Part shown: positions 3,268 through 64,000 of the stretch, piece after piece | Layout of the letters: each line of letters begins with the position of its first letter | Position numbering within the stretch: the stretch's first letter is position 1 | Origin: an uncultured Spirochaetota bacterium | GTDB lineage: Bacteria; Spirochaetota; Spirochaetia; SZUA-6; Fen-1364 | DNA: 64,000 nucleotides | Assembly (NCBI GenBank): GCA_963734545.1 | Contig: CAVTHO010000003.1 | Location: 128,001 to 192,000, forward strand | Direction of reading: 5' to 3' | Notes under the pieces: generated by a model | Databases searched by the model: none | The model's input: only the letters and a program-made list of their open reading frames with translations | Told to the model about the DNA's origin: nothing | Translations under genes and position numbers: made by a program

Positions 3268-3287
3268 CAACGAAGCTGTTCGGCCTG

Positions 3288-3453
3288 GCGGTCTGACCGC
3301 GGACAGGGACAGGGGAAGCTCTGCGTCAGCGCGGCCTTCGGCTGTCATCTTTCTCCGGGAAAGGCCTTTTTTGGTCCTGGCCGATTATAGTTGACAACTC
3401 TCGATCCGGCGCGATAGGATGGTTCTCGTGGTCTGACAGCTATACCAAGACCA
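3288..3453 (+). promoter_or_regulatory. Putative sigma70 promoter with GntR/FadR-type operator boxes
   Basis: TTGACA (3391-3396), 18 nt, TAGGAT (3415-3420); palindrome GCGGTC-T-GACCGC (3288-3300) and related TGGTCTGACAG (3429-3439), resembling FadR-subfamily GGTCTGACC boxes. Confidence 0.55.
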
Positions 3454-3473
3454 TCCAACCGATTGAGGAGAGC

Positions 3474-24713: not shown

Positions 24714-25730
24714 ATGAAGAAGAGACTCGTGTGTGTCGTGGTCGCGGTCTTCAGCATCATGCTGGCGGCGCCGCTGTTCGCGGCGCCGGTCAGCCTCGCC
24801 ATCTTCGTCCCGGGCGTGGCGGCGGGCAGCCCCCTGTACGAGCAGATGGTAAGCGGCGCGCAGAAGGCGGCCGCGGAGTATCCCGACATGACCCTGAAGG
24901 TCGTGGAGGCCGGGTTCAACCAGGCGGAATGGCCCGAAAAGATGACGTCCCTCGCGGCAACGGGTGAGTACACCTACATCCTCACCTCGAACCCGTCGAT
25001 GCCCTTCATCTGCGCGGACGTGGCAAAGAGCTTCCCGCAGCAGAAGTTCATCGTGATGGACGGCTACCTTCCTCCCGGCAATCCGCAGTTCTACACCCTG
25101 ATGTACAACCAGGTGGAGCAGGGCTACTTCGCCGGCTACCTCGCGGGGCTCGTGACCAAGAGCAAAATGAAGGGCGCGACGCCGGACCTGAAGGTGGGCG
25201 CGATCGTGGCGCAGGAATACCCGGCGCTCACCAAGGAGATGATTCCCGGCTACACGCAGGGCTTCAAGGCGGTGGACCCGAAGATCACCCTCGACTACCG
25301 GGTGGTCGGCAACTGGTATGACGCCAACAAGGGCGCCGACCTGGCGAACAGCATGATGGATGCCGGCGTGGACGTGATCCTCGCGATCGCCGGCGGGGCG
25401 GGGCAGGGCATCATCAAGGCGGCGCAGGAGCGCGGGCGCTACGTCGTGTACTTCGACAGCAACGCGTACGCGATCGCCCCGGGGACGATCGTCGGGTGCG
25501 CGACGCTGGACCAGAACCGGGCCGTCTACGAGACCCTGAAGAAGGCCCTGCAGGGGACGCTCGCTTTCGGCACGGCCGACGTGGTGAACGCCAAGGCGGG
25601 GTACGTGGATTTCGCGGACAACGACCCGCTGTACACGAAGAATGTCCCGGCGGACGTGCGCGCAAAGATGACGGATCTCATGAAGAAGTTCCGCTGCGGC
25701 GCCATGAGCCTTCCGGTTCCCCCGATGTAG
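24714..25730 (+). CDS. BMP-family ABC substrate-binding protein resembling riboflavin-binding RfuA
   Basis: Signal peptide; AIFVPG..SPLY, EAGFNQAEW, SNP, YNQVEQ, RVVGNWYDANK, DPLY segments match my recollection of Treponema RfuA (TP0298); needs alignment. Confidence 0.8.
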   Translation: MKKRLVCVVVAVFSIMLAAPLFAAPVSLAIFVPGVAAGSPLYEQMVSGAQKAAAEYPDMTLKVVEAGFNQAEWPEKMTSLAATGEYTYILTSNPSMPFICADVAKSFPQQKFIVMDGYLPPGNPQFYTLMYNQVEQGYFAGYLAGLVTKSKMKGATPDLKVGAIVAQEYPALTKEMIPGYTQGFKAVDPKITLDYRVVGNWYDANKGADLANSMMDAGVDVILAIAGGAGQGIIKAAQERGRYVVYFDSNAYAIAPGTIVGCATLDQNRAVYETLKKALQGTLAFGTADVVNAKAGYVDFADNDPLYTKNVPADVRAKMTDLMKKFRCGAMSLPVPPM

Positions 25731-45251: not shown

Positions 45252-45296
45252 GTCCCTCGATCCTAAGGCCGGGCGGAAAGGCGCGCAAGAACCTTT

Positions 45297-45650
45297 TCAG
45301 GATCCGACGAGCGCTGTCACCGCTCCCAGGAGCTGCTCGGGGCTCTCCCCCTTGCTCACGAATGCGTCGGCACCGGCTGTCCTGGCTTCTTCCCGGTAGT
45401 CGTGCAGGGACAGGATGAGAATCTTGATTTCCGGCTGTCGTGACTTGATGCGCCGAGTGGCGGTAAGGCCGTCCAGCTCCGGCATGCGGATGTCCATCAG
45501 GATGAGCTGCGGACGGACTTCCGCCGCGAGGCGGTCCGCCTCCAGTCCTGTCGCGGCCTCCCAGATCTCCGATCCGGGCAATGAGGCCGATAAAAGGGCC
45601 TTCAGGCCGCTGCGGGCGTGTTTCTGATCGTCCGCGATGATAATTTTCAC
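45297..45650 (-). CDS. Single-domain response regulator
   Basis: IADD, LMDIRMP, VSK. Confidence 0.85.
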   Translation of the reverse strand: MKIIIADDQKHARSGLKALLSASLPGSEIWEAATGLEADRLAAEVRPQLILMDIRMPELDGLTATRRIKSRQPEIKILILSLHDYREEARTAGADAFVSKGESPEQLLGAVTALVGS

Positions 45651-45759
45651 CCGTTGTGTCTCCTGGACCGGCGTTTCGAGGCCGCCGCGCCCGGGAACTA
45701 TAAGTCCGGATCAGGGCCCGGGAGCATCGCCAAAAAGAGTGATTTTTCGGAAAGCGCCT

Positions 45760-46434
45760 CTAGGGCGAATGGTGGGCGGGAAAATCGTCCAACGAGGCGA
45801 GCCCGGAACGGAGCGCATAGAGGGCCGCCTGGGTCCTGCTGGCGAGGTGGAGCTTGCTCAGGACATTGCTCACGTGGGTGCGCACGGTCCACTCCGCCAC
45901 GAAGATCTTCGCCGCGATCTCCTTGTTGCTGAGGCCCTGGGAGATCAGGCGAAGCACTTCCAGCTCCCGCTGCGTGAGAGGCTCCGCGGTCGGCTTGCCC
46001 TTTCCCGGGTGGGAAAGCTCCTGCAGGACTTTGCGGGCGATGGCGGGCTCCAGCGAGGGCTCGCCGCGGTAGACCTGCCGGATGGCTTCCAGAAGCTGCT
46101 CGGGGCTGGAATCCTTCAGCAGGTATCCGAGCGCCCCCGCCTTCATCGCGGGGAAAACCTTGTCGTCCGCCGCAAAGCTGGTGAGCACGAGGATCCTGGC
46201 CCCGGGCTGCTGCGCGGTAATCCTGCTGGTGGCCTCTATGCCGTCCATGCTGGGCATGACGAGATCCATGAGGATGACATCCGGCGTGAGAGAGGCCGCC
46301 TTTTCCACCGCTTCCGTCCCGTTCTCGGCTTCTCCGACCACCTGCATGTCTTTTTCCGTTGCGACGAGCGCCTTGATTCCGCGGCGGACGATCCCGTGAT
46401 CGTCGACGATCAGCAGGCGTATGACATCTTTCAC
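45760..46434 (-). CDS. NarL/LuxR-family response regulator
   Basis: LIVDDH, LMDLVMP, LTQRELEVL..GLSNKEIA. Confidence 0.92.
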   Translation of the reverse strand: MKDVIRLLIVDDHGIVRRGIKALVATEKDMQVVGEAENGTEAVEKAASLTPDVILMDLVMPSMDGIEATSRITAQQPGARILVLTSFAADDKVFPAMKAGALGYLLKDSSPEQLLEAIRQVYRGEPSLEPAIARKVLQELSHPGKGKPTAEPLTQRELEVLRLISQGLSNKEIAAKIFVAEWTVRTHVSNVLSKLHLASRTQAALYALRSGLASLDDFPAHHSP

Positions 46435-46709
46435 AGGACAATTCTCCCGCGACGAGTATAGCAGATCAGTCTCTTCTCGCACAGGTGCGTGACTGCCGTG
46501 CCGGCGCAGGCCGCGCAATCGAGGCGGGGGCGCCTTCCTGATGTCGAATGAATTTGATATGATTTCGTCCACGAATTCAGACAAAAGAGCAGAATGGATT
46601 ATTCTCCGCGCAGGAGGCGCTCTAATTGCTTTAATATTGAACAATTATCCGTGACGGATGGGCGCGCATACTGGCACCCTATTTGCATTGACACCTGGTG
46701 GGGGAAAGA

Positions 46710-48063: not shown

Positions 48064-49623
48064 ATGAAAAGGCTCGCCTGTTCCGTCGCCCTGCTGCTCC
48101 TGGCCGTATTCTCATTCGCGGAGGATTTTTTCGACCTGGTGTCCCAGAGCACGCCGGAGCTCATACTGGCGGCCGTCAGGACAGGGGCAAAGCTCAACGA
48201 CAGGGACAAGTATGGCAGGACCCCCCTCATGTTCGCCGCCCGGTTCAACCCGAACGCCGAGGTCATCAGTGCCCTGCTGAAAGCCGGGGCGAAGATCGAA
48301 GAAAAGGACAAAGGCGATCGGACTCCTCTCATGTTCGCCGCGGCGGGCAATGAGAACCCGGAAGTGATCAACGAGCTGCTGAAATCCGGGGCAAAAGTCG
48401 ATGCCAAGGACGAGGATGGAATGACCCCGCTCATGAATGCGGCGGCCACCAATGGGAACCCGGACGTCGCCGGCGAATTGGTGAAAGCGGGAGCAAGAGT
48501 GGACGACAGGGACAAGAACGGCAGGACCGCTCTCATGCTCGCCGCGCGGGACAATGAAAATCCGGAGGTGGTCGCGACCCTCTTGAAATCAGGGGCACGG
48601 ACAGGGGAGCGGGACAGGGACGGAGTGACCCCCCTCATGTTTGCGGCGGTCCATAACGGCAATCCCGAGGTGGTCCTGTTTCTGCTGAACGCCGGTGCGC
48701 GGACCGACGTCAAGGATGCAAGCGGAAGGACGCCCCTCATGGATGCCGCCTATCACACCCAGAGCGTCGACGTGATCTCCGCGTTCCTGAAGGCCGGCGC
48801 GAAGATCGACGATCGGGACAGGTACAACATGACCCCGCTCATGTTCGCCGCGGGCTTCAACGGCGACATCGGTGTATTGAACGCCCTGCTGGAGGCGGGG
48901 GCTGACGTCAGCGACAGGGACCTGGACGGCCACACCCCCCTGATGTGGGCTGCATACAACAACCCGAACCCGAACGTGCTTGCGGCGCTGATACGGGAGG
49001 GAGCGGTAGTCGAGGACAAGGACGCGAAAGGTCAAACGTCCCTGATGTGGGCCTGCTTGAACAATTCGGACCCGGATATCGTGAAGCTGCTCCTGAAGGA
49101 GGGGGCAAACGTGGAGGACAGGGCGCTGAACGGATTCACGCCGCTCATGTTCGCCGCAAAAAACGCCAACCCCGAAGTGCTGAAGCTGCTTCTGGCATCC
49201 GGAGCGAACCGAAACGACAGGGACGCGAACGGCGGAACCGCGCTGATGTCCGCTGCCTACGACAACTCGAACCCCAAGGTGTTACGGGCGCTGCTGGCGG
49301 CGGGGGAAAGCGTCGACGCGAAGGATTCGAATGGCGGGACCGCCCTGATGTCCGCCGCGTACAACAATCTGAACCCGGAAGTGCTCTCTTTGCTGCTGGA
49401 AGCGGGGGCGCAGATCAATGCGCAGGACAATGAGGGCATGACCCCCCTCATGTGGGCGGCAAAACACAACACGAACCCCGATGTGATCTCCGTGCTCCTG
49501 AGGGCCGGCGCGAATGGAAAGCTGACGAGCAGGGAAGGCAAGACCGCCGGCGCCTATGCCGAGGAAAACGAAAAGCTCAAAGGCACCGCCCAGTATTGGG
49601 ACCTGAACAACGCACGGTTCTAG
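48064..49623 (+). CDS. Secreted ankyrin-repeat protein
   Basis: Signal peptide plus 13 tandem ~34-aa repeats (G.TPLM.AA..N.NPEV...LL.AGA). Confidence 0.92.
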   Translation: MKRLACSVALLLLAVFSFAEDFFDLVSQSTPELILAAVRTGAKLNDRDKYGRTPLMFAARFNPNAEVISALLKAGAKIEEKDKGDRTPLMFAAAGNENPEVINELLKSGAKVDAKDEDGMTPLMNAAATNGNPDVAGELVKAGARVDDRDKNGRTALMLAARDNENPEVVATLLKSGARTGERDRDGVTPLMFAAVHNGNPEVVLFLLNAGARTDVKDASGRTPLMDAAYHTQSVDVISAFLKAGAKIDDRDRYNMTPLMFAAGFNGDIGVLNALLEAGADVSDRDLDGHTPLMWAAYNNPNPNVLAALIREGAVVEDKDAKGQTSLMWACLNNSDPDIVKLLLKEGANVEDRALNGFTPLMFAAKNANPEVLKLLLASGANRNDRDANGGTALMSAAYDNSNPKVLRALLAAGESVDAKDSNGGTALMSAAYNNLNPEVLSLLLEAGAQINAQDNEGMTPLMWAAKHNTNPDVISVLLRAGANGKLTSREGKTAGAYAEENEKLKGTAQYWDLNNARF

Positions 49624-50944: not shown

Positions 50945-51588
50945 AAAGAATATGTTTCATAAACGGAAGCCTGAGAGGAAAGGCCGCCTCGTCTCTCAAG
51001 TTCCTGCACGGCGTGGACAAGCTCCTGAGCGACACGGAATTCGAAAAGCCAATCATCACGGTCAAGACCTTGATGCCCGGCGGTTATCCCGCGGAGATAT
51101 TGAAGATGATCGGGGACGCGAATGCCCTTGTCATCGCATTTCCGCTTTTCTGCTACAGCCTTCCCGGGGCCCTGATGAGACTGCTGGAAGACTACAATGC
51201 ATATGCGAGGCAGAACGGCGCCCGGCACGAGACCAGGGTATATGCTATCGTGAATTGCGCATTTGCCGAGCCGGAAATAAACGCTGAAGCAATCCGTGTC
51301 ATGCGGAACTTCTGCAGAAGCGCCGGTCTTGAATGGAGGTTCGCTCTTTCAATCGGATGCGGCCCGGTTGCCGTCCTTGCCAGTGTCATACCGTTTCTGA
51401 ACATGCGAATCAGGAGGGGATTTCGGGAAATAGCGGATGATATCCGGCAGGATCGCAGAGACGCCCGCGCAACGTTCATGGTGAAGCCGTTCATTTCGAA
51501 GAAGATTCTGCTTGCCATACGGGACGGGTTGGAGAAGAAGGCCCAACGGCGCCTTGAAAGAAAGATGAAGCTGAACTATGGAAAATAA
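50941..51588 (+). CDS. Flavodoxin/NADPH-dependent FMN reductase-like protein
   Basis: FINGSLRG, AFPLFCYSLPG, IVNC. Confidence 0.7.
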   Translation: MKRICFINGSLRGKAASSLKFLHGVDKLLSDTEFEKPIITVKTLMPGGYPAEILKMIGDANALVIAFPLFCYSLPGALMRLLEDYNAYARQNGARHETRVYAIVNCAFAEPEINAEAIRVMRNFCRSAGLEWRFALSIGCGPVAVLASVIPFLNMRIRRGFREIADDIRQDRRDARATFMVKPFISKKILLAIRDGLEKKAQRRLERKMKLNYGK

Positions 51589-51600
51589 GGGGGGCCGAAG

Positions 51601-52422
51601 ATGGGGATAAAAGGCGAGTGGATCAGCTACGGAGAAGGATCGGGCTACTTTGCCAGTGCCCGAAAGGGCGCCGACGCCTCTGCCCGGCGTGCTGGTCATC
51701 CAGGAAATCGGCGGCGTCAACGGGCACATCGAGGACGTGACACGCCGCATCGCCGCGGCGGGCTACGCGGCCCTGGCGCCCGACCTGTATGCCGTGGACG
51801 GCAAGCGGCCGGAGGCGCTGACAAAAGAGAGGTTTGCGGAAGCATTCGGCTTCGCGGCCAGGCTTCCCCCCGGGACCATGTTCAATCCGGCCGCCAGGGA
51901 AGCGGCGCTCGCAAAGCTCGGAGAGGCCGAGAGGCGGCTGATAAGCGAAACATTCAGCCAGATGTTCTCATTCGCCGCGCCGGGACGAGACGGGATCCCT
52001 CATGGGCCCGCTCGTCCGCGGATTCCGGCACCTCCGCGAGGAACGCACTGAGACCCGGGGGCAGAAGATAGCCTGCGTGGGCTTCTGCATGGGCGGCGGC
52101 CTGTCGGCCCTCCTGGCCTGTGAGGAGCCCGAGCTTTCCGGTGCAGCGGTGTTCTACGGCATGGCGCCGCCCGCGGAGAAGATCGCCGCCATCGCCTGTC
52201 CCGTCATTGCCTTCTACGGCGCCATGGATCAGCGCGTCAACGCGGGCATACCCGGCTTCCAGGAGGCAATGCGCGCGGCAGGCAAGTCCTTCGAGCACCA
52301 CATCTACGAAGGGGCGGGCCACGCCTTCTTCAACGACGACGGGCCTTCGTACGACGTGAATGCTGCCCGTGATTCCTACGCGCGACTGCTTGCCTTCTTC
52401 GCGAAAGACACTCTCCGGATAG
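51601..52422 (+). CDS. Dienelactone hydrolase family (frameshifted)
   Basis: [28 protein letters not shown]. Confidence 0.85.
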
Positions 52423-52432
52423 GAGGCGACGC

Positions 52433-53610
52433 ATGGATTCGCCGCAGCCAAGCTGCAGCCCCAGCTCGAACGGCCCCGCGAATGCCTTGTCATGGCCAAG
52501 CCCGCGGGACCGCGCTGCAACATGCGCTGCGCGTACTGCTACTACATCGGGAAGGAGGCGGTATTGCGGGCAAGGCCCGGGCCGCCTGCCCACCGACCTG
52601 CTGGAACGCTTCATCGAGCAGAGGCTCCAGTCCTCCCGCGAGTCCGTCGTGCACTTTGAATGGCACGGGGGAGAGCCGACGCTCCTGGGCCTGGACTATT
52701 TCCGTTCGATAGTCCGGATGCAGCGCGCGCATCTGCCGCCGGGGCGCACGGTCTCCAACGGACTGCAGACGAACGGATATCTTCTGAACGGGGCCTGGGC
52801 CGATTTCCTGGCAGCAGAAGGCTTCTCCGTTGGTCTGAGCCTGGACGGGCCCGAGGAGCTGCACGATGCGTTCAGGAGAAGCGCCGACGGCGGGCCCACG
52901 CACGCGCGGGTGGAGCGGGCCTATGCGCTTCTCAAGGAAAGGGGCGTTTTCGTCAACCTGCTGTGCGTGCTTCACGCCCGCAACGCCACGGAACCGGACA
53001 GGGTCTACGACTATTTCCGCGGCCTTGGGGCCACGCACTTTCAGTTCCTGCCGCTGGTTGCGGGGACCGCGGGCACGGACTCCGCCGCGGCGGAGCCCGA
53101 TGCAGGTCGGCGGAATTCCTCTGCCGAGTATTCGACCGCTGGATTCACGAGGACGTGGGCCGGGTTGTGATCCAGAACATCGACGAGGCGTTGCGCCCGA
53201 TCTATGGGCTCCCGCATGCCCTCTGCATCCATCGCGAGACCTGCGGGGATGTTGCGGTGCTCGAGCGTGACGGCGCCTTCTACGCGTGCGACCATTTCGT
53301 CGATGCGGATCACCTGGTCGGCAACCTGCGCGAGCGGAGCCTGGCGGACCTGGCCGCCGACCCGCGCATGATCGATTTCGGCAACGCGAAGCGGGACACG
53401 CTGCCGCGCGTCTGCCGTGAGTGCGACGTCCTCTCGTGGTGCAACGGCGGATGCCCCAAGGATCGCGCGCCCGCGGCCCCCGGTGAGGCCGGCGGCGTGA
53501 ACAGGCTCTGCGCTGCCTACAAGAAGTTCTTCCGCCATTGCAGGCCCGAGCTGACGAGATTGGCGGCGCACATGCACGCGGGACGGCCGCTGCGGGAGTT
53601 CACTGTCTGA
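52433..53610 (+). CDS. Anaerobic sulfatase maturase-like radical SAM/SPASM enzyme (frameshifted)
   Basis: KPAGPRCNMRCAYCYY, WHGGEP, QTNG, SLDGP, CDHFV, C..C...CNGGCPK. Confidence 0.88.
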
Positions 53611-53904
53611 GGAGTCGTTCCTCAACGGGGCTGCCGGTCGCGAGCGCGCGGCCCCGCGGCCAGGGCATGCCGGTGTTCCCGCACCTCCAGGACTTCTCCC
53701 TGAATGTTGCGGGCGGAATTTGGTTGCGGAGATCTCTTTCTGCTATATAATGACAGCATAAATAAGTTGAAGCGACTGAAAGTGCGTACGATCTGCCCAA
53801 GTCACAGAAAGCGCGCTGCGGGAGGGATCCCTGCAAAGGCCGCAGGCGGTCTGCATTGACGCCCGCCTCTTCAGCCGCCCGACACAGGCATTACGAGTCC
53901 ACTC

Positions 53905-54046
53905 GCATAACTCGACGTCCGAGGGAGTTGCACGGCGAAGGCAGAACATACCTTGTGAAGATATTGTGCCGTTCGATGCGACGCCGCGTAACATATGCGA
54001 TAGCGCGGTTAGCGGCCGCACCGTACAATAAGATGTTATGCAAAAC
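53905..54046 (+). mobile_element. Putative first recombination site (attI-like or degenerate attC) of a cassette array
   Basis: Core GTTATGC at 54035; GTTATGCAAAAC is the exact reverse complement of GTTTTGCATAAC at 57282-57293. Confidence 0.6.
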
Positions 54047-54121
54047 GGAGTTGTTACCTTGACCAAATGCCATTTGCCCAAATGTGCTGTACAGCCAATA
54101 CAGCTATGATATAGTCCGATT

Positions 54122-57100
54122 ATGGGACTAACAGACTTTGATAGGGCGTACGATCGCGTCAAGTCGCTGTCCGAGACCTTCGAGCGAGGCATTACCCGAT
54201 ATATGTCTTCTATATATCAAGAAGCTGAAGCACGCAAGGATTTCATAGACAAATTGTTCATCGCACTTGGATGGGATGTTAATCACGATATTCAACTAAA
54301 CCCCTATGAGCAGGAAGTAAAGGTAGAGCGGGCAATATCTATCTCATCCAGCCAGCGGAGAGCAGATTATGCGTTTTGCTGCTCTCCAAACTACAGGGAT
54401 GTAAGGTTCTATGTTGAAGCTAAGAAGCCTTATAGCGACATTGGCAACGCCGAAAACTACTTTCAGACAATACGGTACGGATGGAATAGCGGTACCGCAC
54501 TTGCGGTTCTGACAGACTATGATCAATTCCATATTCTTGATTGTCGCTACAAACCGGATCCAGAAACCATATTAAGCCGAGCCCTTCGTGTCTACCACTA
54601 TACCGACTATATCGATAAAGACAGCTTCGCAGAAATATACTGGCTGTTTTCCCACGAAGCCGTTGCAGGTGGATCCATCGAGAAGCGTTCAGCCGAGTTA
54701 CCTAAGCCTCGAGGGAAGGCGGTGCAACGAGAGCTCTTTCCCGGTGCCTATAAACCCGTAGATGAAGCATTTCTTGAAGACCTAGACGAGTATCGCATTA
54801 CCCTGGCACGTTCCTTTAAGGCGAGTAATCCTGAACTTGATGGTGAGGCTCTTACTGAAATAGTTCAGCGTACTCTCGACCGACTCGTCTTCTTAAGATT
54901 CTTAGAAGATAAGCAAATCGAACAAGAGCCTATAGTTGCCAATTTAGGAAGCCATTCGAGTGCATGGGATGATTTTATAGCTACTAGTCGTCGATTGAAT
55001 AGCATTTATGATGGAATGCTGTTTAAGCATCACAATCTCCTTGACTCCAAGGAGACAAAAATCGACGAAACTGCATTTGCCAAAATTTGTGAGTCTCTTG
55101 CTCACATAAATACTCCATATGATTTTAATGCTATCCCGATCTATATCCTCGGTTCAATTTATGAGAGATTCCTGGGAAAGGTGCTTGTCGCTACCGAAAA
55201 GAGAGTCTATCTAGAAGAAAAGGCCGAAGTAAAGAAGGCTGGAGGCGTCTATTACACGCCAGAGTACATTGTCCAATACATCGTTGATAGGACAGTAGGT
55301 AGAATTATCGAGGGAAAGACACCCGCGCAGATTTCTAACCTAAGATTTATTGATATTGCATGTGGCAGCGGCTCATTCCTTCTCGGAGTATATGACAAGC
55401 TCGTAGATTATCATGGAAATTATTACAACTCATTAGGGAGGGAAGATAGAGACCGCCTCGTAAAGCGTGGAGATTGCATAGAGCGAAACGGAAGAATCTA
55501 TGTCTCTCTAAAAAAGAAAAGATCCATTCTATTGAATAATATATATGGAGTTGACATAGATTCACAAGCAATAGAGCTTGCGCAACTTTCACTCTATCTT
55601 AAGCTATTAAAGGACGAGACAATTGTAAGCTCTCATGAGCATCAATTAGAGTTCCATGAGGCACTGTTGCCCTCCTTATCGTCCAACCTTATTTGTGGTA
55701 ATTCAATTTTGGGGACCGAGATACTTCAGGGCAAGCTTTTTAGCATAGAAGAGGAAAAGAAGCTTAATCCCATGAATTTTAAGGATGCGTTTCCGGCCGC
55801 AATAGCAGCCGGGGGTTTTGATGTAGTAATCGGAAACCCTCCATATCGGAGAGAATTAGATTACAAGCATTTGTTGGATCAAATAGCACAAGGTAGTCTT
55901 GGCAAGAAATATCGTTGCGCTCGTATGGACCTTTGGTACTATTTCGTACATCGCGGCATGGAGATTATGAAGCCAAAAGGTCTGCTGTCTTTTATTGTAA
56001 ACGCATACTGGATTGCTGGTACTGGATCAGAGAAACTGATTCAGACAATGAAAGATTCATCGCACATTGAAGAGATTTTTGCCTTGGGAAAGATGAAAGT
56101 ATTCGAAAAAGTATCTGGCCAACATATGATAATTCGCATCCAAAAGGGCAAATCTAGTGCACAAACGGTGCTTAGGACGGTCATAGGTGGCAATGAAAGG
56201 ACCGCTGAACCTTTTTTTACAGGGCTAGGAAAAGTAGTAAGCCTAAGAAAAACGCCGAAAGAGTTGTTCCTGGACGGAAAAATCGACATTCAACCAGGCA
56301 GTGGTGTATTGTTAAGAAAAATCGATCGCGGAGTGAAGCTCTCTCAATTGGGGATTGTAAGACAAGGAATTGCAGAGAATCCATCCTCAATTAACCGGAA
56401 AACAAACAAAAAGTTTGGTGAAAAATGGAAAGAAGGTGAGGGTGTATTTGCGCTTACAAGCAGTGAAGCAAAACGGCTGAAATTGACTATCCAAGAAAGG
56501 CAATTGCTAAGGCCTTACCATGATCTGTGTGATCTTGATAGGTATTGGATAAGAGAAGCGGCATCTTATCTGCTAATATATTCAACTCCTAAGACATGCC
56601 CGGACATAAAGGTCTATCCAAATATTTATGCGCACCTCAGCAAGTTTCGTGAGATTACATCTGCTCGTAGAGAGACAAGAAACGGGTCTAACCAATGGTG
56701 GCACTTGCATTGGCCTCGCGATGAAGAAATATGGAAAGCAAGCAAGATCATCTCCATACAGATGGCCGCAAGGCCAAGCTTCTCTTGTTCAGAGCAACCC
56801 GTATATTTGCCTTTTAGTGTGAATGTTTTTGTTCCGAACAATATGGTGAAAGAAAACATGAAGTATGTCCTTGCGCTTCTGAATTCCAAGGTTTTGTGGC
56901 ATTGGTTTAGCCATCACGCAAAACGAAGGGGGGTTGGCCTAGAGATAAATGGCAATGTCTTATCTTCTGCACCGATTCGAAGGATAAACTTCAGTATTGC
57001 AAAAGAAAAGCGAATTCACCAAGAATTGGTCGAATTGGTGGATGCAAATATTAAGGCGATTAACCAGGTAAAGATAGGCGTAACGGAGAAAAATCTTGCC

Positions 57101-57211
57101 TACTACGAAAGTAGGCAAAAGTCAATCGATCGGCAAATTGATCAACATATTTATCAGCTTTATGGTCTTTCGGAAGAGGAGGCGGGTCTCTTGGACAAGG
57201 AGTATGAATAG
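54122..57211 (+). CDS. Type IIG restriction-modification enzyme (Eco57I-like fused nuclease/N6-adenine MTase/TRD)
   Basis: ADY..VEAKK PD-(D/E)xK, GVYYTP, DIACGSGSFL, GNPPY; visibly AT-rich. Confidence 0.9.
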   Translation: MGLTDFDRAYDRVKSLSETFERGITRYMSSIYQEAEARKDFIDKLFIALGWDVNHDIQLNPYEQEVKVERAISISSSQRRADYAFCCSPNYRDVRFYVEAKKPYSDIGNAENYFQTIRYGWNSGTALAVLTDYDQFHILDCRYKPDPETILSRALRVYHYTDYIDKDSFAEIYWLFSHEAVAGGSIEKRSAELPKPRGKAVQRELFPGAYKPVDEAFLEDLDEYRITLARSFKASNPELDGEALTEIVQRTLDRLVFLRFLEDKQIEQEPIVANLGSHSSAWDDFIATSRRLNSIYDGMLFKHHNLLDSKETKIDETAFAKICESLAHINTPYDFNAIPIYILGSIYERFLGKVLVATEKRVYLEEKAEVKKAGGVYYTPEYIVQYIVDRTVGRIIEGKTPAQISNLRFIDIACGSGSFLLGVYDKLVDYHGNYYNSLGREDRDRLVKRGDCIERNGRIYVSLKKKRSILLNNIYGVDIDSQAIELAQLSLYLKLLKDETIVSSHEHQLEFHEALLPSLSSNLICGNSILGTEILQGKLFSIEEEKKLNPMNFKDAFPAAIAAGGFDVVIGNPPYRRELDYKHLLDQIAQGSLGKKYRCARMDLWYYFVHRGMEIMKPKGLLSFIVNAYWIAGTGSEKLIQTMKDSSHIEEIFALGKMKVFEKVSGQHMIIRIQKGKSSAQTVLRTVIGGNERTAEPFFTGLGKVVSLRKTPKELFLDGKIDIQPGSGVLLRKIDRGVKLSQLGIVRQGIAENPSSINRKTNKKFGEKWKEGEGVFALTSSEAKRLKLTIQERQLLRPYHDLCDLDRYWIREAASYLLIYSTPKTCPDIKVYPNIYAHLSKFREITSARRETRNGSNQWWHLHWPRDEEIWKASKIISIQMAARPSFSCSEQPVYLPFSVNVFVPNNMVKENMKYVLALLNSKVLWHWFSHHAKRRGVGLEINGNVLSSAPIRRINFSIAKEKRIHQELVELVDANIKAINQVKIGVTEKNLAYYESRQKSIDRQIDQHIYQLYGLSEEEAGLLDKEYE

Positions 57212-57286
57212 TAATTGAATTGAGATGGCCCTTGTGAGTATTTCAGTCGTCGAGATAGCAATTAAAGTGGAATTGAAAACTGTTTT

Positions 57287-57401
57287 GCATAACAAATCGT
57301 TGCAGTTGTCCCCTAGACGACGTTTGGAAGAGCCAATGCAGTTTCGCAATGCCGTTCATTGCTGTGCTGATGCTGCGGGGCAACTGAACTCTATGCTCGG
57401 C
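57287..57401 (+). mobile_element. Integron attC site 1
   Basis: GCATAAC-AAATCG-TT[G]CAGTTG[T]CCCC ... GGGGCAACTGAA-CTCTAT-GCTCGGC: inverted arms with two extrahelical bases; right core degenerate. Confidence 0.8.
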
Positions 57402-57479
57402 GTTTTCACTTGAATTCGCGTGGCTCTGCTCCTTGTGCATTGCTCCTGAGACTACGAATGAAAGTTAGGAGGTAACCCC

Positions 57480-59639
57480 ATGATTCAGAACTTCAGCGTC
57501 GCATTCCAGCAGATGGCAAGCTTTCTTTCGATATCAAAACTCCGCGCATTCCCTGATATCCTTGAGGAGCTCGTGCAGCAAAGCCTGGTCATCCTTCCCA
57601 GCGACAGGCACGGGAACGCGCAGGACGTCTCAGCCTCGCTGCAATCTCTCTTTGGTCTCCAGCTGAACGACAAGGATATTCAAGCTGCAATCGACTCTCT
57701 GGTTGCCCGAAAGGCCGTGCAGACACTCGCAAACGGCAGCCTGGCGCTCGAAGAATCAAATGCGGTGCGCATAGAAAGACGAATCCAGGACGCCAGAGAG
57801 CTGGAGTTCAGAGTGAAGGCTAAGTGGACCGCAGCAGTTGGCCGGAAAAAGTGCTGCGTAGTTTCGGACGACCTTTGGAAGGCACTGCGGGACTTTTTGC
57901 AGCAAGCTTTTCGCAGACACGGAATTCAAGTTGCGGCGCTGGTGGACCCAAACATCGACGTTTCGCACGAGCAGTCCAGCAGCTTGAGCTACATTGTGGA
58001 CGAAACGGTTGCCAGACTCTTCCCTCAGCTTGCTCCCGCTGAGAAGCGGTCAGCCGCTGAAGTCATTTCCTCCTTCTTTGACGCAGGCTCAATTGACAAT
58101 GACCGCGCACGGTACATTTCGGGTTTGGCGGATGGAGCCTTCAACTACTTTTCTCTTTCGATTGCTCCCGATGTATCGAAGCGGTTCCGTGATAAGCTGG
58201 ACAGCCTGACCATTTTCATGGATACCAACTTTTTGTTTGGCATTTTAGATCTCCACCTCAATACCCAGGTCGACGTTTCAGCCGAGCTTGTTGAAGCAAT
58301 AAACAGGTTCCGACTGCCTTTCAAAATGAGATATCACGAGGCGACTTCAAGGGAACTCACGAACACCCTCACGTTCTATTCTTCTGTGTTGCGGTCAACG
58401 AAGTGGCCTCAAGCGATAAGCCGGGCGGCTAACAACCTCGGCGCGCTCTCAGGAATTGAGCTAAAGTATCACCAATTGAACGCTGAGCGAAGAGTCGACG
58501 TTGAGGACTTCCTTGCACCTTACCAGCAATGGCAGATTCTTCTCAAATCCAAAGGCATCGACGTCTATAGAGGAGATTCCTCTGAGGAACGACTGCGCAG
58601 ACGCGCAGATCTCGAGGATGCGTATCGGAGATACTTTGCGCAAGTGGGGCGCACAAAGTTTCCCGAAGCTGTCCAACACGACATGGCCGTCCTTGAAGCA
58701 GTTCGCTCGCTGAGGACTCCTAACAGAGCGGCGCTGGAGTCCGGTGCCATGTTGCTAACCTGCGACCACCACTTGTTCAGATTTGACAGCATTTCCAGCC
58801 GGCAATCGCGTGACTTCGGCTGCACGATGCTTCCGAGCGTGTTTTGGCAAGTATTGAGGCCCTTCGTTGCCGACGCATCTGACTACGACAAGGCCTTCGC
58901 CGAGTCTTTCGGCATTCCTGAGTTTAGCCTCACTCGGGGAAACGCCTCAAAGGCGGCGACGAGAATGCTCAGCATCCTTGCGAGTTACAAAGACATCCCA
59001 GAAGAAACGGCCGCGGCAATGCTTTCGAGCTCCATGGTACTCTCGCAAATAGAGAGAGCGGAGAGCGATGAGGACTTTTACCGAATCATCGACAGTGAAC
59101 TTGCGCGGCAAAACACGAGCCTAATTGAAGAACTGGCCGAAGTCGAAAAGCAGAAGCAAATAGAGCAGGAGAGCGCAACGCAGAGGGCGAAGGAATTGGC
59201 CCAGGCGAAGGGAATCATTGCGGACAAAGAAGCTGAGCTCGCGAACCTCGAGAAAGAGCTCGCGGAGCGAGATGATGTCGCAAGCATAAAGCGCAAACAG
59301 CTGTCTGCAGCGGCCGAGGCAAGGCAAGTTGCAGAGGATCAAGCCTCTAGCCAACAGACAGCTATAGATTCGTCTAGGCGTCAGATCCGCAACCTCCGGC
59401 GCGGTGTTGGACTGTCGGTAGGGCTTCTACTGAGTCTCGTGTTCTATTTGCTTATCAACATGGTAGGAGTTTGGCCGTGGCTCCAGAACCATTACCACTC
59501 GGTCGGAATCCAAGCGTCCGCCATTATCTTACTGATTCTTGCTGCGCTCGGCATTGCGGAGCCGAACCGGCGCCTTCGGTTGCTTTGGTTTGCGGCCACT
59601 GCCTTACCGGTCATTGGAGCTTTGCTGACCATTTTGTGA
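57480..59639 (+). CDS. Hypothetical protein: PIN-like domain, coiled coil, 3 C-terminal TM helices
   Basis: IFMDTNFL, QHDMAVL, LLTCDHHL acidic PIN-like motifs; E/K/Q-rich heptads; hydrophobic C-terminus. Confidence 0.7.
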   Translation: MIQNFSVAFQQMASFLSISKLRAFPDILEELVQQSLVILPSDRHGNAQDVSASLQSLFGLQLNDKDIQAAIDSLVARKAVQTLANGSLALEESNAVRIERRIQDARELEFRVKAKWTAAVGRKKCCVVSDDLWKALRDFLQQAFRRHGIQVAALVDPNIDVSHEQSSSLSYIVDETVARLFPQLAPAEKRSAAEVISSFFDAGSIDNDRARYISGLADGAFNYFSLSIAPDVSKRFRDKLDSLTIFMDTNFLFGILDLHLNTQVDVSAELVEAINRFRLPFKMRYHEATSRELTNTLTFYSSVLRSTKWPQAISRAANNLGALSGIELKYHQLNAERRVDVEDFLAPYQQWQILLKSKGIDVYRGDSSEERLRRRADLEDAYRRYFAQVGRTKFPEAVQHDMAVLEAVRSLRTPNRAALESGAMLLTCDHHLFRFDSISSRQSRDFGCTMLPSVFWQVLRPFVADASDYDKAFAESFGIPEFSLTRGNASKAATRMLSILASYKDIPEETAAAMLSSSMVLSQIERAESDEDFYRIIDSELARQNTSLIEELAEVEKQKQIEQESATQRAKELAQAKGIIADKEAELANLEKELAERDDVASIKRKQLSAAAEARQVAEDQASSQQTAIDSSRRQIRNLRRGVGLSVGLLLSLVFYLLINMVGVWPWLQNHYHSVGIQASAIILLILAALGIAEPNRRLRLLWFAATALPVIGALLTIL

Positions 59640-59668
59640 TCCTGTCGGACCTGCAAGGTCAGAAAAAC

Positions 59669-59784
59669 GCCTAACAAATCGTTGCAGTAGTCGCCTTAAA
59701 GGCCGTCTGGATCGGAAGGTGCAGTTCGGAATTCCAAATTGGGCCGAGGCTGATGCGGCGGCGCTACTCAACTCTATCTTATGA
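59669..59784 (+). mobile_element. Integron attC site 2
   Basis: GCCTAAC-AAATCG-TTG[C]AGTAG[T]CGCC ... GGCGCTACTCAA-CTCTAT-CTTATGA. Confidence 0.8.
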
Positions 59785-59866
59785 CGCAGGAGATACTGAT
59801 ATCTCAGGGTCGGGGCATGCGGGCTTGCTCGTAGACTACGCCGGTCCTGCCGAGTAGGCTTTGGCC

Positions 59867-60820
59867 ATGATTTCGCTCCTTGATGTGCAGCGCGCGAAGG
59901 CGGCAATCACGCCCTACGTGAGGCGCACGGCTCTCGAGAAGAACTCCACTCTCAGTCAGCAGCTCGGTACGAATGTCTATCTGAAGCTCGAGCTGTTCCA
60001 GCGCACTGGTTCCTTCAAGCCGAGGGGCGCGTTTGCCCAGGTCCTGAACCTGACGCAGGCGCAGCGGAACAGGGGAGTTGTCGGTGTCAGCGGCGGCAAC
60101 TTTGCCCAAGGGATGGCGATCGCGGCCCGCGAGCTGAACTGCCGGGCTGTTGTGTGCATGCCCGCGTCAACGCCTCGAAACTACATCGAAGCAGCCGAAG
60201 CCTACGGTGCAAAGGTAGACCTCTCGCCAACATTCGCCGGGATCTTCGAGCGGGCAGACCAATACGCGCGAGATGGATGGAGCCTCCTTCACCCCTTCGA
60301 CAACCCGCAGCAGATGGCCGGCGCCGGAACAATCGGCCTGGAGATCGTGGAGGACCTGCCTTCAGTCACTGACGTACTGATCAGCATCGGCGGCGGCGGG
60401 CTGTACGCCGGGATAGCTGTAGCATTGACTGGCCTGAAGCCCAGCGTGCGGGTCTGGGGCGTGGAAACAGTGGGATCCGAAACGATGGGTGCGTCCTTGG
60501 CAGCCGGCAGGATCGTCGAGATCGAGCCGAAGTCTCTGGCGAAAACCCTGGGATCTCCCTACGTCGCCAAGGATGCCTTCGAGATCATGCAACGCAACCC
60601 CGAGCGGTACGTAGCGGTGACTGACAGGGAAGCGTTTGAGGCCGGCGTGTTCCTGCTGGAACGCGCCAAGCTGAACACTGAGCTGGCAGCTTCCTGCACC
60701 CTGGCAGCAGCTCGCCGTATCTCAAAGAGCTTTGGCCCAGAGGATCATGTGGTCTTGCTCATCTGTGGCGGAAACAACTCCCTGGAGAACTGGCTGCACT
60801 ATCGCGAGGTTCTCACCTGA
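59867..60820 (+). CDS. PLP-dependent threonine/serine dehydratase family
   Basis: TGSFKPRGA, SGGNF, IGGGGL, CGGN. Confidence 0.9.
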   Translation: MISLLDVQRAKAAITPYVRRTALEKNSTLSQQLGTNVYLKLELFQRTGSFKPRGAFAQVLNLTQAQRNRGVVGVSGGNFAQGMAIAARELNCRAVVCMPASTPRNYIEAAEAYGAKVDLSPTFAGIFERADQYARDGWSLLHPFDNPQQMAGAGTIGLEIVEDLPSVTDVLISIGGGGLYAGIAVALTGLKPSVRVWGVETVGSETMGASLAAGRIVEIEPKSLAKTLGSPYVAKDAFEIMQRNPERYVAVTDREAFEAGVFLLERAKLNTELAASCTLAAARRISKSFGPEDHVVLLICGGNNSLENWLHYREVLT

Positions 60821-60874
60821 CTCGAACCGCGTCAATATCTAGGCAAATCCTTGTCACCGGTAAGGAGAACGATT

Positions 60875-61378
60875 GTGCAGCAGTTCCGTGTGGAGCCGGA
60901 AGACGACACCGGCAGCGTCATGCAGTTCCTGGAAGACAGGATCTACGAGTACAACTCGAAGGAAACCGGAAGGGATGATGGCCGGCTCTTCTCAAGAGTT
61001 GTCCGGGATACCAAAGGGGACATCGTTGGCGGCGTTGCCGGATGGACGTGGGCGGCTGTCTGTGAGATCACGCAGCTTTGGGTGAGCCAGAGCGTGCGCA
61101 ACAAGGGAATCGGAAAATTGCTCCTCCAGGCAGCGGAAGGCGAAGCGAGGGAGAAGAATTGCACGAAGGTTCTCGTGAGAACCTACAGCTTTCAGGCACC
61201 GCGGTTCTATGAGAAGCACGGGTACAATATAGAACAAGTCACTGAGAACTTCCCCGAAGGTCACCGTTACTACACTCTTATGAAAGCCAATCTGACCCCG
61301 CGCAGTGCCGGCTTGATCGGTCACAAATCCTCGAGAAACCTCAGCACGCGATCCAGCATTGAAGCCGCCGACGCCTGA
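60875..61378 (+). CDS. GNAT acetyltransferase
   Basis: LWVSQSVRNKGIG, SFQAPRFYEKHGY. Confidence 0.88.
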   Translation: MQQFRVEPEDDTGSVMQFLEDRIYEYNSKETGRDDGRLFSRVVRDTKGDIVGGVAGWTWAAVCEITQLWVSQSVRNKGIGKLLLQAAEGEAREKNCTKVLVRTYSFQAPRFYEKHGYNIEQVTENFPEGHRYYTLMKANLTPRSAGLIGHKSSRNLSTRSSIEAADA

Positions 61379-61899
61379 TCGTAGTCACTTGTATCTTCAT
61401 CCGCGAATAGGTGCCCGGACCCAGCGTAAGAATGCACTGCGCAGGGCTGTCCCGCCTCACGGACAGCTTCCGACAGGGCTGCTACCTGTGCCGCCTCGAC
61501 CCAAGGATCGCCAACCGCGTAGTGTATCTGAACGGGAACGGACGGCCACTTTCCTACGCCCATCATCGCCAGAGGAAGTGCCCCGTGCATGAGAATGGCA
61601 CCGCGTGCCCCTGGCCGCGTGGCGGCGAGATACTGGGCTGACGAAGATCCCATTGAAAATCCTGCGTAGACGACTTGCTTCGGCAGATCAGCGACTGATT
61701 CCTGCGCACGCCCGATCAGGGCGGGAATGCCGATTGCATCGCGTCGCGCAACGCCGTCGTTGAGATCGTTGAACACGTCGCCATCGAAGAAGTCTGGCGT
61801 ATATACCGAATGACCGGCGGAACGCAATTGATCGGCAAATTTGCGAACCGCGGGCCGAAGCCCGAGGGCGGAATGAAAGAGAACGACTGTCTCCGGCAT
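61321..61899 (-). CDS. Dienelactone hydrolase family
   Basis: FHSALGL, GFSMG, GHLFAD. Confidence 0.88.
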   Translation of the reverse strand: MPETVVLFHSALGLRPAVRKFADQLRSAGHSVYTPDFFDGDVFNDLNDGVARRDAIGIPALIGRAQESVADLPKQVVYAGFSMGSSSAQYLAATRPGARGAILMHGALPLAMMGVGKWPSVPVQIHYAVGDPWVEAAQVAALSEAVREAGQPCAVHSYAGSGHLFADEDTSDYDQASAASMLDRVLRFLEDL

Positions 61900-61969
61900 G
61901 ATGGTCTCCTTGCTGTACACTGTACAATATATATTGGACGTTGTCCAGCACTTTCTATAGACTCTTGCC

Positions 61970-62665
61970 ATGAGGCAAAAAGGTCATCCGAAGCGAGCAC
62001 CAGGGGAACGCGCCGGAATCCAAGTCGATTCCGTCTTGGCAGCCGCACTCGCGGTATACGCACGCGAAGGACTCAGCGGCCTGACTATGCGCGCCGTAGC
62101 AAAGGAACTCGATGTCGCTCCAAATGCACTCTATAGCCATGTAAAAAGCAAGGAGCATCTCGTGGACGCTGTGATCGATGCGTTGATGGGCGACGTAGAG
62201 ATTCCAGACCAGTCGATTGAATGGCGCGAGGCTCTCTTTCGACTTATGTGGACATCGCGGACCGTTTTGCTCCAGCATGCCGACCTCATGCCCCTGTTCC
62301 TTTCAAGGCCTGCACGCGGACCCACCGCCCTCCGTCTAGGTGAAGCCACACTTCGATTTCTATCCCGCGGCGGCATACGGGATGAGGCCGCAGTATCCGC
62401 CCTGCGTATCCTTCTTGTGTATACGATTGGTTTTGCGGCGCAAGAAGCGCCACGTCGCGATGACCCGACAAATAGTGAGCGGCTGGCGGAGACGACCAGG
62501 GTCTACAGTAATGCCCATGATCAACCCCACATGCAGGCGCTGGCGGCAACGCTCGCCAGGCATCCGGATGACAGCACCTTCGAGACGGGACTGAATTGGC
62601 TGATCGATGGCATCTCAAACGCCATCGGCCGGAAGAACGCGCCATACAACAAATCGTTGCAGTAG
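61970..62665 (+). CDS. TetR-family regulator
   Basis: LTMRAVAKELDVAPNALYSHVKSKE; FETGLNWLIDG. Confidence 0.9.
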   Translation: MRQKGHPKRAPGERAGIQVDSVLAAALAVYAREGLSGLTMRAVAKELDVAPNALYSHVKSKEHLVDAVIDALMGDVEIPDQSIEWREALFRLMWTSRTVLLQHADLMPLFLSRPARGPTALRLGEATLRFLSRGGIRDEAAVSALRILLVYTIGFAAQEAPRRDDPTNSERLAETTRVYSNAHDQPHMQALAATLARHPDDSTFETGLNWLIDGISNAIGRKNAPYNKSLQ

Positions 62666-62684
62666 TCGCCTTCGAGGCCGTCTA
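62644..62684 (+). mobile_element. Partial attC site 3 (left arm only)
   Basis: AACAAATCGTTGCAGTAGTCGCCTT..AGGCCGTCT nearly identical to attC2; right arm not recognisable. Confidence 0.65.
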
Positions 62685-62805
62685 TGTCCGGCTATCGAGT
62701 GCTGCAATGGATACCGATGCCCGCGGCCGGCGTTGACAGCCCACAGAGCCAATGGCAGACTCCCATGAGTCGCGGCCGTAGTTGTCATAGAAAAAGGAGA
62801 GATCC

Positions 62806-63661
62806 ATGAAAGTCACCATCATAGGCCTGTCAATCATTTTGTCCATTTCGGGCACGTCCCTTCAAGCGCAGAGCTTCGTTGAGACGTATGGGGTCCCTTA
62901 TCAGGGTCATTGGTGGCAGAGAACTTCAGATGGACATTCAGAGACCTCAACCCGTGGGCGTTGCGAAGCCGGCAATTGTGTTTCTTTGCGGCAACGGTTG
63001 GGGATACGATAAGACTCTGAACCGGGAGGGATTCTGGTACGCCCTGGATCTGGCCAATCAAAAGGGATATGTCGCCGTCACTGTGGATTACAGTGCCTCG
63101 GTAGAGAACTCCAACCGCCGACCTATCGGGATCTTCCCTGCGCAAATCCATGACGTCAAAAGTGCCATACGGTTTCTCAGGGCAAACGCAGCGCAGTATG
63201 ACATCGATCCAGCCCGCATTGGGGTTGTTGGCTTCTCATCAGGAGGAAACCTGGCGCTGCTGCTCGGGCTGACGGTTCCGGCGGATGGGCTCGAAGGGCA
63301 GGACGACAATCTCCAGTACTCCAGCTCCGTGCAAGCCGTTGTCAATCTCTCGGGTGCAACGGACCTCGTGAGTTGGAACAGGGAGCCATATGTCAGTGCG
63401 TATTTGGGGGGCTCTCTTCAGGCAAAGCCTGAACAGTACAAGAAGGCTAGTCCTATCAACTATGTCAAACCGGGCAGAGCACCGATTTTGACCATCCATG
63501 GGGACAAGGATACCTCCGTCTCCCCGGATCAGGCGCTGCTGCTTGACGCACGAATGAAAGAAGCGGGCGCGCCTCACACTCTGATAATTGAAAGCGGCCG
63601 TGGTCACACCGACGAGTTGGATCAGGCCGTTTGGGATTTCCTGGAGAAGGCGCTCAAGTAG
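62806..63661 (+). CDS. Secreted alpha/beta hydrolase (esterase; frameshift near 62905)
   Basis: Signal peptide in ORF 62806; FPAQIHDVKSAIR, GFSSGG, HGDKD, GH. Confidence 0.82.
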
Positions 63662-63841
63662 CCGGCCTGCAGTGGACAACAGCTTAGGCGAGAGAGACCA
63701 GGGTTCAAAGTTGAAGTGCAATAGTCTTGAGCTCCGATAATCCTCCTAGGTTGTGATCTCATCCGAAAAGTCCAATTGCCGAGGGGCAGGTGCGATGGTA
63801 TAGTACTCTGAGAAAAGGGCAGATTCAAAAAGGAGCGAATC

Positions 63842-64000
63842 ATGGGTAGGCACCAAAATGGATCGACAGCGGGCTGCCCGCTGCGGTTCCCGGTCCTGTT
63901 GCTGGCATTCGTGGTCCTGGCAGGCGGCACTGCCCTGGCCCAACAGAATTCCCAGCCGTCCGGCAACGCCACAGACAGAGTCATCTACAACGCCGGATGG
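63842..64000 (+). CDS. Start of a probable secreted protein (truncated by edge, possible frameshift)
   Basis: AAGGAG RBS; signal-like LLLAFVVLAGGTALAQ. Confidence 0.4.
   Translation, partial: MGRHQNGSTAGCPLRFPVLLLAFVVLAGGTALAQQNSQPSGNATDRVIYNAGW

Follow-up and report, generated by a model that had tools for sequence, protein, structure and literature searches.

The genes that follow position 54035 of the window, by which we mean the whole 64,000-nucleotide stretch of DNA analysed here (C3:128001-192000 of the Spirochaetota genome G000), are accompanied by copies of a short repeat that resembles part of an integron attC site. The locus raises the question of whether these genes are integron cassettes, how they could have come to a place in the middle of a contig, and whether they can still leave it. 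An earlier note, made from the letters alone, had proposed a decaying cassette array from 54035 to 62700, similar to a CALIN, a group of clustered attC sites without an integron integrase (Cury et al. 2016, PMC4889954). In the light of the whole assembly (10 contigs, 5.14 Mb, 89% completeness) and of related genomes, we consider it likely that the DNA from 54035 to about 63700 is a decayed CALIN of four cassettes, drawn from the pool of the genome's own integron family and now fixed in place.

The repeats are part of an attC family

The repeat, AACAAATCGTTGCAGT, occurs in the window in three exact copies on the + strand (57291, 59673 and 62648), as the earlier note had stated, and has no match in 100 shuffles. 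Genome-wide, 36 matches with at most two mismatches were found, and none with the reversed control. They are clustered: C6:13-35372 contains about 24, all on the same strand and spaced by 0.56-7 kb, the end of C9 has five, the beginning of C5 two, and the window on C3 three. Alignment of the sites reveals an attC family of 112-121 nt with the layout xxTAAC, AAATC, GTTGCAGTTGTCCCC, variable loop, GGGGCAACTGAAC, TCTAT and GTTAxxx. The sites are very similar to one another, and the 16-mer is the conserved 5' arm.

The consensus fold, computed with RNAalifold from 29 attCs, all from outside the window, has paired R boxes, an unpaired spacer of 4-5 nt, paired L boxes and a variable loop. It pairs AACA with TGTT and GTT with AAC. 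One base is bulged at each of model positions 16 and 23, which are separated by 6 bp (six paired positions). Compensatory changes are present in 6 of 17 consensus pairs. The R and L boxes, unpaired spacer and extrahelical bases match the attC anatomy described by Nivina et al. (2016, PMC5027507). On its coding strand, the family has a G and a T as bulged bases (for example at 57302 and 57309 of the window), which makes them C and A on the recombined strand, whereas it is the bottom strand that usually has the G and the conserved T (PMC5027507). The identity of the bulges thus appears to be the complement of the usual one, with canonical 6-bp spacing and arm.

A covariance model, R1, was built from the same 29 sites, with the window copies left out. 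It is specific to this attC family and was used instead of the general IntegronFinder model. Over the whole genome, R1 identifies 35 sites, all in four clusters (on C6, C5, C9 and C3), with scores of 70-128 bits for the array sites. The same attC family forms dense arrays in relatives, with 64 R1 sites in the 78 kb searched (G023, G034 and G007). The first bases of a cassette derive from its own attC, and should therefore be complementary to its own R''. Consistent with this signature, the 7-mer that follows one attC exactly complements the R'' of the next in 18 of the 29 adjacent attC pairs outside the window. In the main array the complementary run is typically 12-13 nt long, and the pairs that do not match are mostly more than 2 kb apart.

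Two complete sites and a stump

With its filters switched off, R1 gave four matches at E ≤ 10 in a scan of the full window. Those to attC1 and attC2 (Table 1) score within the range of the array sites, the one that starts at attC3 (62644-62760) is weak, and the fourth, at 25459-25506, is at chance level. Both attC1 and attC2 fold as attC with both single-base bulges, as had been claimed for two of the copies, and align end to end with the consensus. The structure of attC1 is complete, with R'' (GCATAAC), a 5-nt spacer, L'' with the bulged G, a stem with the bulged T, loop, L' and spacer. Its R' box reads GCTCGGC, so that the crossover triplet is GCT and not GTT. In attC2, which is also complete in structure and 90% identical to the attC at C6:29460-29570, R'' is GCCTAAC and R' is CTTATGA, with CTT instead of GTT. 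The sites begin 76 nt (attC1) and 30 nt (attC2) after the stop codons of the preceding open reading frames (ORFs). Only these two of the three copies are full sites, and the earlier note had missed the truncation of the third. About 40 nt remain of attC3, which comprise R'' (ATACAAC), L'', the spacer and the 5' stem arm, and the 3' two-thirds including R' are gone; according to BLAST and alignment by eye, the similarity to sister attCs is confined to 62648-62684. No further attCs were found with R1 in the 20 kb past the window or at the syntenic loci of five relatives.

On the + strand, the locus thus contains two full sites, 2.4 kb apart, together with one stump. Their descent and structure place them in the family, and their crossover triplets make them defective: in attC1 and attC2 the triplet has lost the GTT complementarity to R'', and attC3 has no R' at all.

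Table 1. Coordinates of the cassette cluster in the window (aa, amino acids)
Feature	Position	Strand	Remarks
Left junction, cassette 1 start	54035-54046	+	G↓TTATGCAAAAC
Cassette 1 gene, type IIG restriction enzyme-methyltransferase	54122-57211	+	1029 aa
attC1	57287-57401	+	R1 98.1 bits, E 1.7e-21
Cassette 2 gene P0001	57480-59639	+	719 aa
attC2	59669-59784	+	R1 98.3 bits, E 1.6e-21
Cassette 3 gene, pyridoxal phosphate-dependent (PLP-dependent) enzyme	59861-60820	+	Pfam
Cassette 3 gene, GNAT acetyltransferase	60851-61378	+	Pfam
Cassette 3 gene, dienelactone hydrolase	61321-61971	-	Pfam
Cassette 3 gene, TetR regulator	61970-62665	+	Pfam; stop codon inside attC3
attC3 stump	62644-62684	+	R1 match 62644-62760, 13.3 bits, E 0.69
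Cassette 4	62690-63700 (approximate)	+	BD-FAE/alpha-beta hydrolase gene 62879-63661 and leader

Cassette boundaries

The self-complementary cassette ends described in the earlier note are present. At the left end of cassette 1, GTTATGCAAAAC (54035-54046) matches the reverse complement of GTTTTGCATAAC (57282-57293), in the cassette's own R'' region, in 12 of 12 positions. For cassette 2, GCTCGGCGTTTT at 57395 and the complement of AAAACGCCTAAC at 59664 agree in 10 of 12 positions. The start of cassette 3, CTTATGACGC, resembles the complement of its end, GCGCCATACAAC, only if one indel and two substitutions are allowed, and end sequences of this kind are common in this genome. That cassette 3 is a single cassette is therefore probable only. 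Cassettes 1 and 2 are 3.4 kb and 2.4 kb in size. The base composition changes from cassette to cassette, as the note had it: the G+C content is 0.66 in the left flank, 0.41-0.46 in cassette 1, 0.49-0.56 in cassette 2 and 0.55-0.64 in cassette 3, compared to 0.62-0.63 in the genome.

The proposed start of the cluster at 54035 stands. The proposed end at 62700 does not, as a fourth cassette follows. Matches to the DNA of relatives resume at 62690, just where the similarity of attC3 to its sisters ends, and the segment that begins there is 79-86% identical to attC-flanked cassettes in the arrays of G023 (four copies) and G034. In the alignments, these homologous cassettes start with GTTATGTCTCTC and end with GAGAGACATAAC. 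In the window, the cassette start is deleted along with the 3' part of attC3. The segment encodes a hydrolase (Pfam BD-FAE, 2.7e-47), and downstream of its gene the similarity to the relatives is limited to GAGAGAGAC and GTTGAAGT. A recognisable attC is found on neither side of the cassette. A candidate vestigial attC at 63665-63830 was rejected, since its global alignment to the attCs of three relatives is no better than that of shuffles (z 0-1.0). A peat metagenome contig joins the end of the hydrolase gene to attC-like sequence, in weak agreement with the cassette reading. Judging from the alignments, the hydrolase gene is a fourth cassette that has lost both sites.

Crossover triplets and cassette mobility

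In this integron family, the integrase recombines the folded attC strand at G↓TT of the R' box, whereby the cassette is excised as a circle and inserted elsewhere. Of the 33 attCs in the rest of the genome, 29 have GTT as R' triplet, and of the two in the window neither does, which bears out the mutated triplets reported in the note. As R'' is still AAC in both sites, with no compensating change, the folded sites have a mismatch at the cleavage position. Given six non-GTT triplets in 35 sites, the chance that both window sites are among them is 15/595 = 0.025 by simple counting. Elsewhere there are four exceptions: ATT in the site that closes the C6 array, and GAT, GCT and CAT in the three sites of a small inverted cluster. 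The inverted cluster, on the - strand at L019 (G000:C6), 43454-46675, is itself degenerate; a gene for a non-integron tyrosine recombinase (C6:44828-45637) lies between its sites, and one of its cassettes has a compensated GCT/AGC pair.

The effect of such changes has been quantified for the integrase IntI1. According to Frumerie et al. (PMC2811028), recombination falls from 2.2e-3 to 6e-6 if the cleavage site is not complementary, and a change of the first position in only one partner costs a factor of 10^3-10^4. That the cassettes are "locked in place", as the note had put it, is a reasonable inference, which would be strongest for cassettes 2-4. Excision of cassette 2 would be the worst case, because attC1 (G first) and attC2 (C first) must exchange strands. 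Cassettes 3 and 4 would hardly be excisable because they lack a usable second site, and excision of cassette 1 would need a left junction that is not an attC. At attC1 the block on recombination may be partial, with some activity kept.

Only three public metagenome runs, searched as contigs, cover small shares of the stretch (0.05-0.08), and no meaning attaches to the parts that they leave uncovered. Besides many contigs with attC-like sequence, they contain short pieces that match parts of cassettes 1, 3 and 4 with 97-100% identity. Apparent joints between attC1 and attC2 in these contigs were considered as evidence of excision and discarded: their sides are 20-31 nt long with 88% likeness, and probably represent other attC copies.

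The integron of the genome

The genome was scanned in six frames for integron integrases with TIGR02249 (E ≤ 0.001; curated cut-off 265 bits). There is no match on contig C3, in agreement with the statement that the window has no intact integrase. An intact integrase gene, missed by the earlier note together with about 30 sister attCs, was found at C5:2875-3807 (403.9 bits). It diverges from two adjoining cassettes, and the attI-like junction beside it has GTTATGTTCA at its end, which exactly complements the R'' region in the attC of the first cassette. The nearest named integrases, with 68-71% identity, are from metagenome-assembled genomes of Spirochaetia. The integrase ORF, at L021 (G000:C5), 2311-3810, encodes 499 aa, of which the profile covers only about the last 310. 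Ahead of the profile region there is a proline-rich N-terminal extension of about 180 aa, and many relatives are likewise 410-500 aa long.

At least three attCs of the genome (C6:9-124, C6:24655-24770 and C9:351845-351960) are near-identical and preceded by the same cassette end, and two contigs break off at a distance of 8-11 nt ahead of them. It seems that the assembly of the main array has been broken by a duplicated cassette.

Genomic context of the cluster

The window copies are situated at 185-191 kb of the 509,592-bp contig C3, at distances of 185 kb and 319 kb to its two ends. The note had suggested a comparison of the locus with relatives, and two of these lack the cluster, with the flanks adjacent or nearly so. 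In G014, the counterparts of C3:168287-179575 and C3:196444-212616 adjoin, and 76 bp replace window 51575-68444. In G002, the left flank is present up to window 53608, after which the contig continues with 2,077 bp of unrelated sequence; a 55-nt exact overlap joins this contig to the one with the right flank. About 2.15 kb replace 53609-68446. The DNA from window 53609 to C3:196446 (14.8 kb) was found only in this genome among the 40 relatives searched. The cassette cluster makes up the first two-thirds of this strain-specific island, and the flanks are chromosomal and syntenic with the relatives.

To the left of 54035, no attC, attI or intI remnant was found by R1 scan or by tblastn and blastn of 53560-54140. 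The tblastn comparison of the integrase with 53560-54140 and 62640-64000 gave chance-level matches only (E ≥ 1). For the absence of an integrase, IntegronFinder uses a distance of 4 kb, and Cury et al. use 10 kb for pseudogenes. A linkage to intI and attI, as in a complete integron, is not seen, intI being on C5 and the cassettes in the middle of C3. The cluster is a CALIN because it consists of sites of the attC family, in the middle of a contig and within a strain-specific island, with no integrase match on the contig. A site finder would report only two sites.

The locus as a whole is a variable hotspot, with other inserts in G002; G014 also lacks the two genes at 51575-53608. These genes, for a dienelactone hydrolase and a SPASM-domain protein (window 51601-53610, to the left of the island), have two frame changes each with respect to their intact G002 orthologs of 272 and 404 aa, with 84-93% identity per piece, and are either pseudogenes or affected by local assembly errors. 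Further to the left, at 48064-49623 in the conserved flank, a 519-aa protein consists almost entirely of ankyrin repeats (Pfam Ank_2 1.6e-121, 11 Ank stretches). Genes for an esterase, an uncharacterised 195-aa protein and a PMT_2 glycosyltransferase lie in the island's right third. Directly after the cluster there is a 356-aa ORF (window 63842 to G000:C3:192912) that matches no Pfam family. Its DNA is 91-93% identical to a gene at an unrelated locus in G024, a genome of another genus, which suggests recent horizontal transfer, and no attCs were found with R1 near that homolog.

Origin and fate of the cassettes

We propose that the cassettes reached this secondary chromosomal spot by integrase-catalysed insertion at a site that is not an attC. 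Insertion by the integrase is inferred because the left junction lies exactly at the cassette start, G↓TT, with nothing integron-like beside it. Loot et al. (10.1101/2022.09.11.507474) show cassette insertions of this kind at genomic attG sites (consensus 5'-GWT-3') and suggest that small CALINs come from them. The attC sites would have decayed afterwards, by the changes to GCT in attC1 and CTT in attC2, the loss of the 3' two-thirds of attC3, and the loss of any site from cassette 4. As a result of this decay, the four cassettes would hardly be excisable by the intact integrase encoded elsewhere, and would behave as ordinary fixed chromosomal genes.

Several points weigh against this account. 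The empty target site cannot be reconstructed, since the relatives searched also lack the flanking DNA (53609-54034 and 63816-68446), and a larger island could have brought in the cluster already assembled. If the vestige at the right end is read at all, its triplet would be GGT, which does not fit GWT, and the vestige is without statistical support. Cassette 3, with four genes on both strands and a poor match of its ends, may not be one cassette. Concerning mobility, a compensated attC-GCT recombines with wild-type attI only about 6-fold less well in the IntI1 system, and recombination is restored if both partners carry the same changed first base (PMC2811028). The tolerance figures for IntI1 in any case come from another integrase than that of this genome. 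Finally, errors at two triplets are conceivable in an assembly of 10 contigs with 89% completeness, in which two neighbouring genes are frame-changed. The triplet differences, however, are substitutions and not indels.

Alternatively, the repeats might have nothing to do with integrons and represent another dispersed repeat that trails genes, such as a repetitive extragenic palindromic (REP)-like element, a terminator or a miniature inverted-repeat transposable element (MITE). The folds of single sites are indeed no more stable than those of shuffles (z -0.4 to -0.9), and the attC structure is accepted because of covariation and the covariance model, not because of single-site energies. In view of 35 R1 matches in four clusters, one of them beside an integron integrase, of R and L boxes, two bulges, compensatory pairs and complementary cassette ends, and of arrays of dozens in relatives, a dispersed repeat can practically be dismissed. 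More weight is due to the possibility that the cassettes were not inserted here by the integrase, and that the cluster is instead a piece of an array moved by rearrangement, an import within the 14.8-kb island, or a second integron that has lost its integrase. Strain specificity extends to all of 53609-68446 and not to the cassettes alone, the hotspot holds other inserts in G002, the 356-aa gene has its close counterpart in another genus, and Cury et al. (PMC4889954) list rearrangement and intI loss among the origins of CALINs. A random breakpoint, unlike cleavage by an integrase, would however rarely place the left end exactly on G↓TT with the typical 12-nt complementarity. Moreover, no remnant of intI or attI is present in 53560-54140 (tblastn and blastn), no TIGR02249 match on C3, and no transposase among the island ORFs scanned with Pfam. 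We regard such an origin as a serious possibility, though less plausible than insertion by the integrase.

It may also be asked whether the cluster is a live reservoir, from which the C5 integrase still excises and recaptures cassettes in trans. The integrase gene is intact and in the same genome, attC1 and attC2 have the full structure and score 98 bits like members of the array, and IntI1 tolerates many changes of the second or third position in one partner (PMC2811028). Excision of cassettes inserted at genomic sites is described in 10.1101/2022.09.11.507474, and Cury et al. (PMC4889954) propose mobilisation of CALIN cassettes in trans. Against this, both triplet changes are uncompensated, that of attC2 affects the first position, where the partners need identity, and cassettes 3 and 4 are without a usable site. 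A live reservoir is thus improbable, and a fixed, decayed cluster is the reading that we prefer.

Cargo genes

The protein of cassette 1 matches Pfam Eco57I (8.7e-34), N6_Mtase, MmeI_Mtase and TaqI_C, and the PADLOC model REase_MTase_IIG (1.3e-153). Its gene has 42% G+C, compared to 63% in the genome. A sigma-70-like sequence (9 of 12 positions, extended TG) lies 7 nt upstream of the start codon and inside the cassette; it is a consensus match only.

The P0001 protein of cassette 2 has no family match in Pfam, PADLOC or NCBIfam, and at least 209 homologous clusters with 34-87% identity in many phyla. An AlphaFold2 model based on 40 sequences (mean predicted local distance difference test (pLDDT) score 81.3) predicts a winged helix (residues 23-113), a PIN-like fold (243-453), a long coiled coil and C-terminal hydrophobic helices. 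The predicted PIN region superposes on whole VapC chains with Z of 10.0-10.5 and a root-mean-square deviation of 2.9 Å over 132-137 residues, and the predicted winged helix has structure matches with Z of about 10. Foldseek E-values for the PIN matches are weak (0.13-0.3, with probability 0.97-1.00), and there is no match to the Pfam PIN model. Residues D248, E292, D401 and D429 are invariant in 40 homologs. When solved structures were searched with a profile of the family of P0001, only coiled-coil or membrane noise came up.

The neighbourhoods of P0001 homologs were scanned in the 21 loci with usable flanks, out of 27 fetched. In 10 of the 21, from many phyla, restriction-modification genes lie beside the homolog (L038, L039, L041, L043, L051-L053, L058, L061 and L062). 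In L061 and L062 the homolog is located between hsdS and hsdR, and in L038 directly after an Eco57I-like gene. Among the other loci, one has a ResIII match only, several have Abi_C, Schlafen-AlbA_2 or deaminase genes, and in two the neighbours are clearly metabolic. R1 found no attCs near 10 homologs in other phyla.

The apparent association with restriction genes suggests a role of the P0001 family in defence. In the window, the P0001 gene is directly behind the type IIG gene, yet in a separate cassette, and it is speculation that the two proteins act together here. P0001 could be the first described member of a widespread family with winged-helix, PIN-like, coiled-coil and membrane parts that acts with restriction-modification systems, for example as a suicide nuclease in reserve that is set free once restriction is blocked. 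We put this forward tentatively and with more doubt than confidence. If it is true, the integron would have built a two-layer defence from independent cassettes, and attC decay would then have welded the pair. A literature search for restriction-embedded PIN proteins brought up nothing that matches the P0001 family, which does not mean that the family is unpublished. P0001 is a reasonable candidate for a phage-defence screen, and the restriction-linked PIN family is the main by-product of this work.

Comparison with known systems

The case would illustrate the end of cassette mobility, in which genes from a mobile pool settle as ordinary parts of the chromosome when their sites erode. Both surviving sites have damaged triplets, as against 4 of 33 elsewhere. 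It also shows how a site finder undercounts such clusters, as two of the four cassettes are visible only with the help of relatives.

Sedentary chromosomal integrons are known for homogeneous attCs, of which the Vibrio repeats are an example. Their arrays are similar in having long, homogeneous attCs, which are common here to the array of the genome (at least about 25 cassettes, beside an intact intI) and to arrays in related genera. A difference lies in the bulged bases, which are C and A on the recombined strand in this family, at the usual 6-bp spacing. The homogeneity of attCs in sedentary chromosomal integrons is a general statement of Cury et al. (PMC4889954).

With CALINs as described by the same authors (PMC4889954), the cluster shares at least two attCs on one strand, the absence of a nearby integrase, the small size (most CALINs have fewer than 6 sites), cassettes mostly of unknown or non-resistance function, and a complete integron in the same genome, which is the case for about half of the CALINs in their study. 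It differs in that every site is damaged at or near the crossover, and that cassettes 3 and 4 have no usable site left, which places it at the decayed end of the range. As in insertions at attG (10.1101/2022.09.11.507474), the cassette start is joined at G↓TT to non-integron DNA, with no remnant, and the case fits the proposal that small CALINs arise from insertion at genomic sites. Unlike in those insertions, there are four cassettes here and not one, and the empty site cannot be recovered from the relatives.

Finally, the cargo resembles the defence-gene cassettes reported recently (10.1101/2024.07.02.601719; PMC12614218), in that cassette 1 encodes a complete restriction-modification enzyme in a single polypeptide, and the family of cassette 2 is found beside restriction genes elsewhere. 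In contrast to those cassettes, cassettes 1 and 2 are large and lie outside the integron and away from its promoter. The CALIN is a well-known kind of element; what is particular here is the degree and pattern of decay, together with the defence-type cargo.

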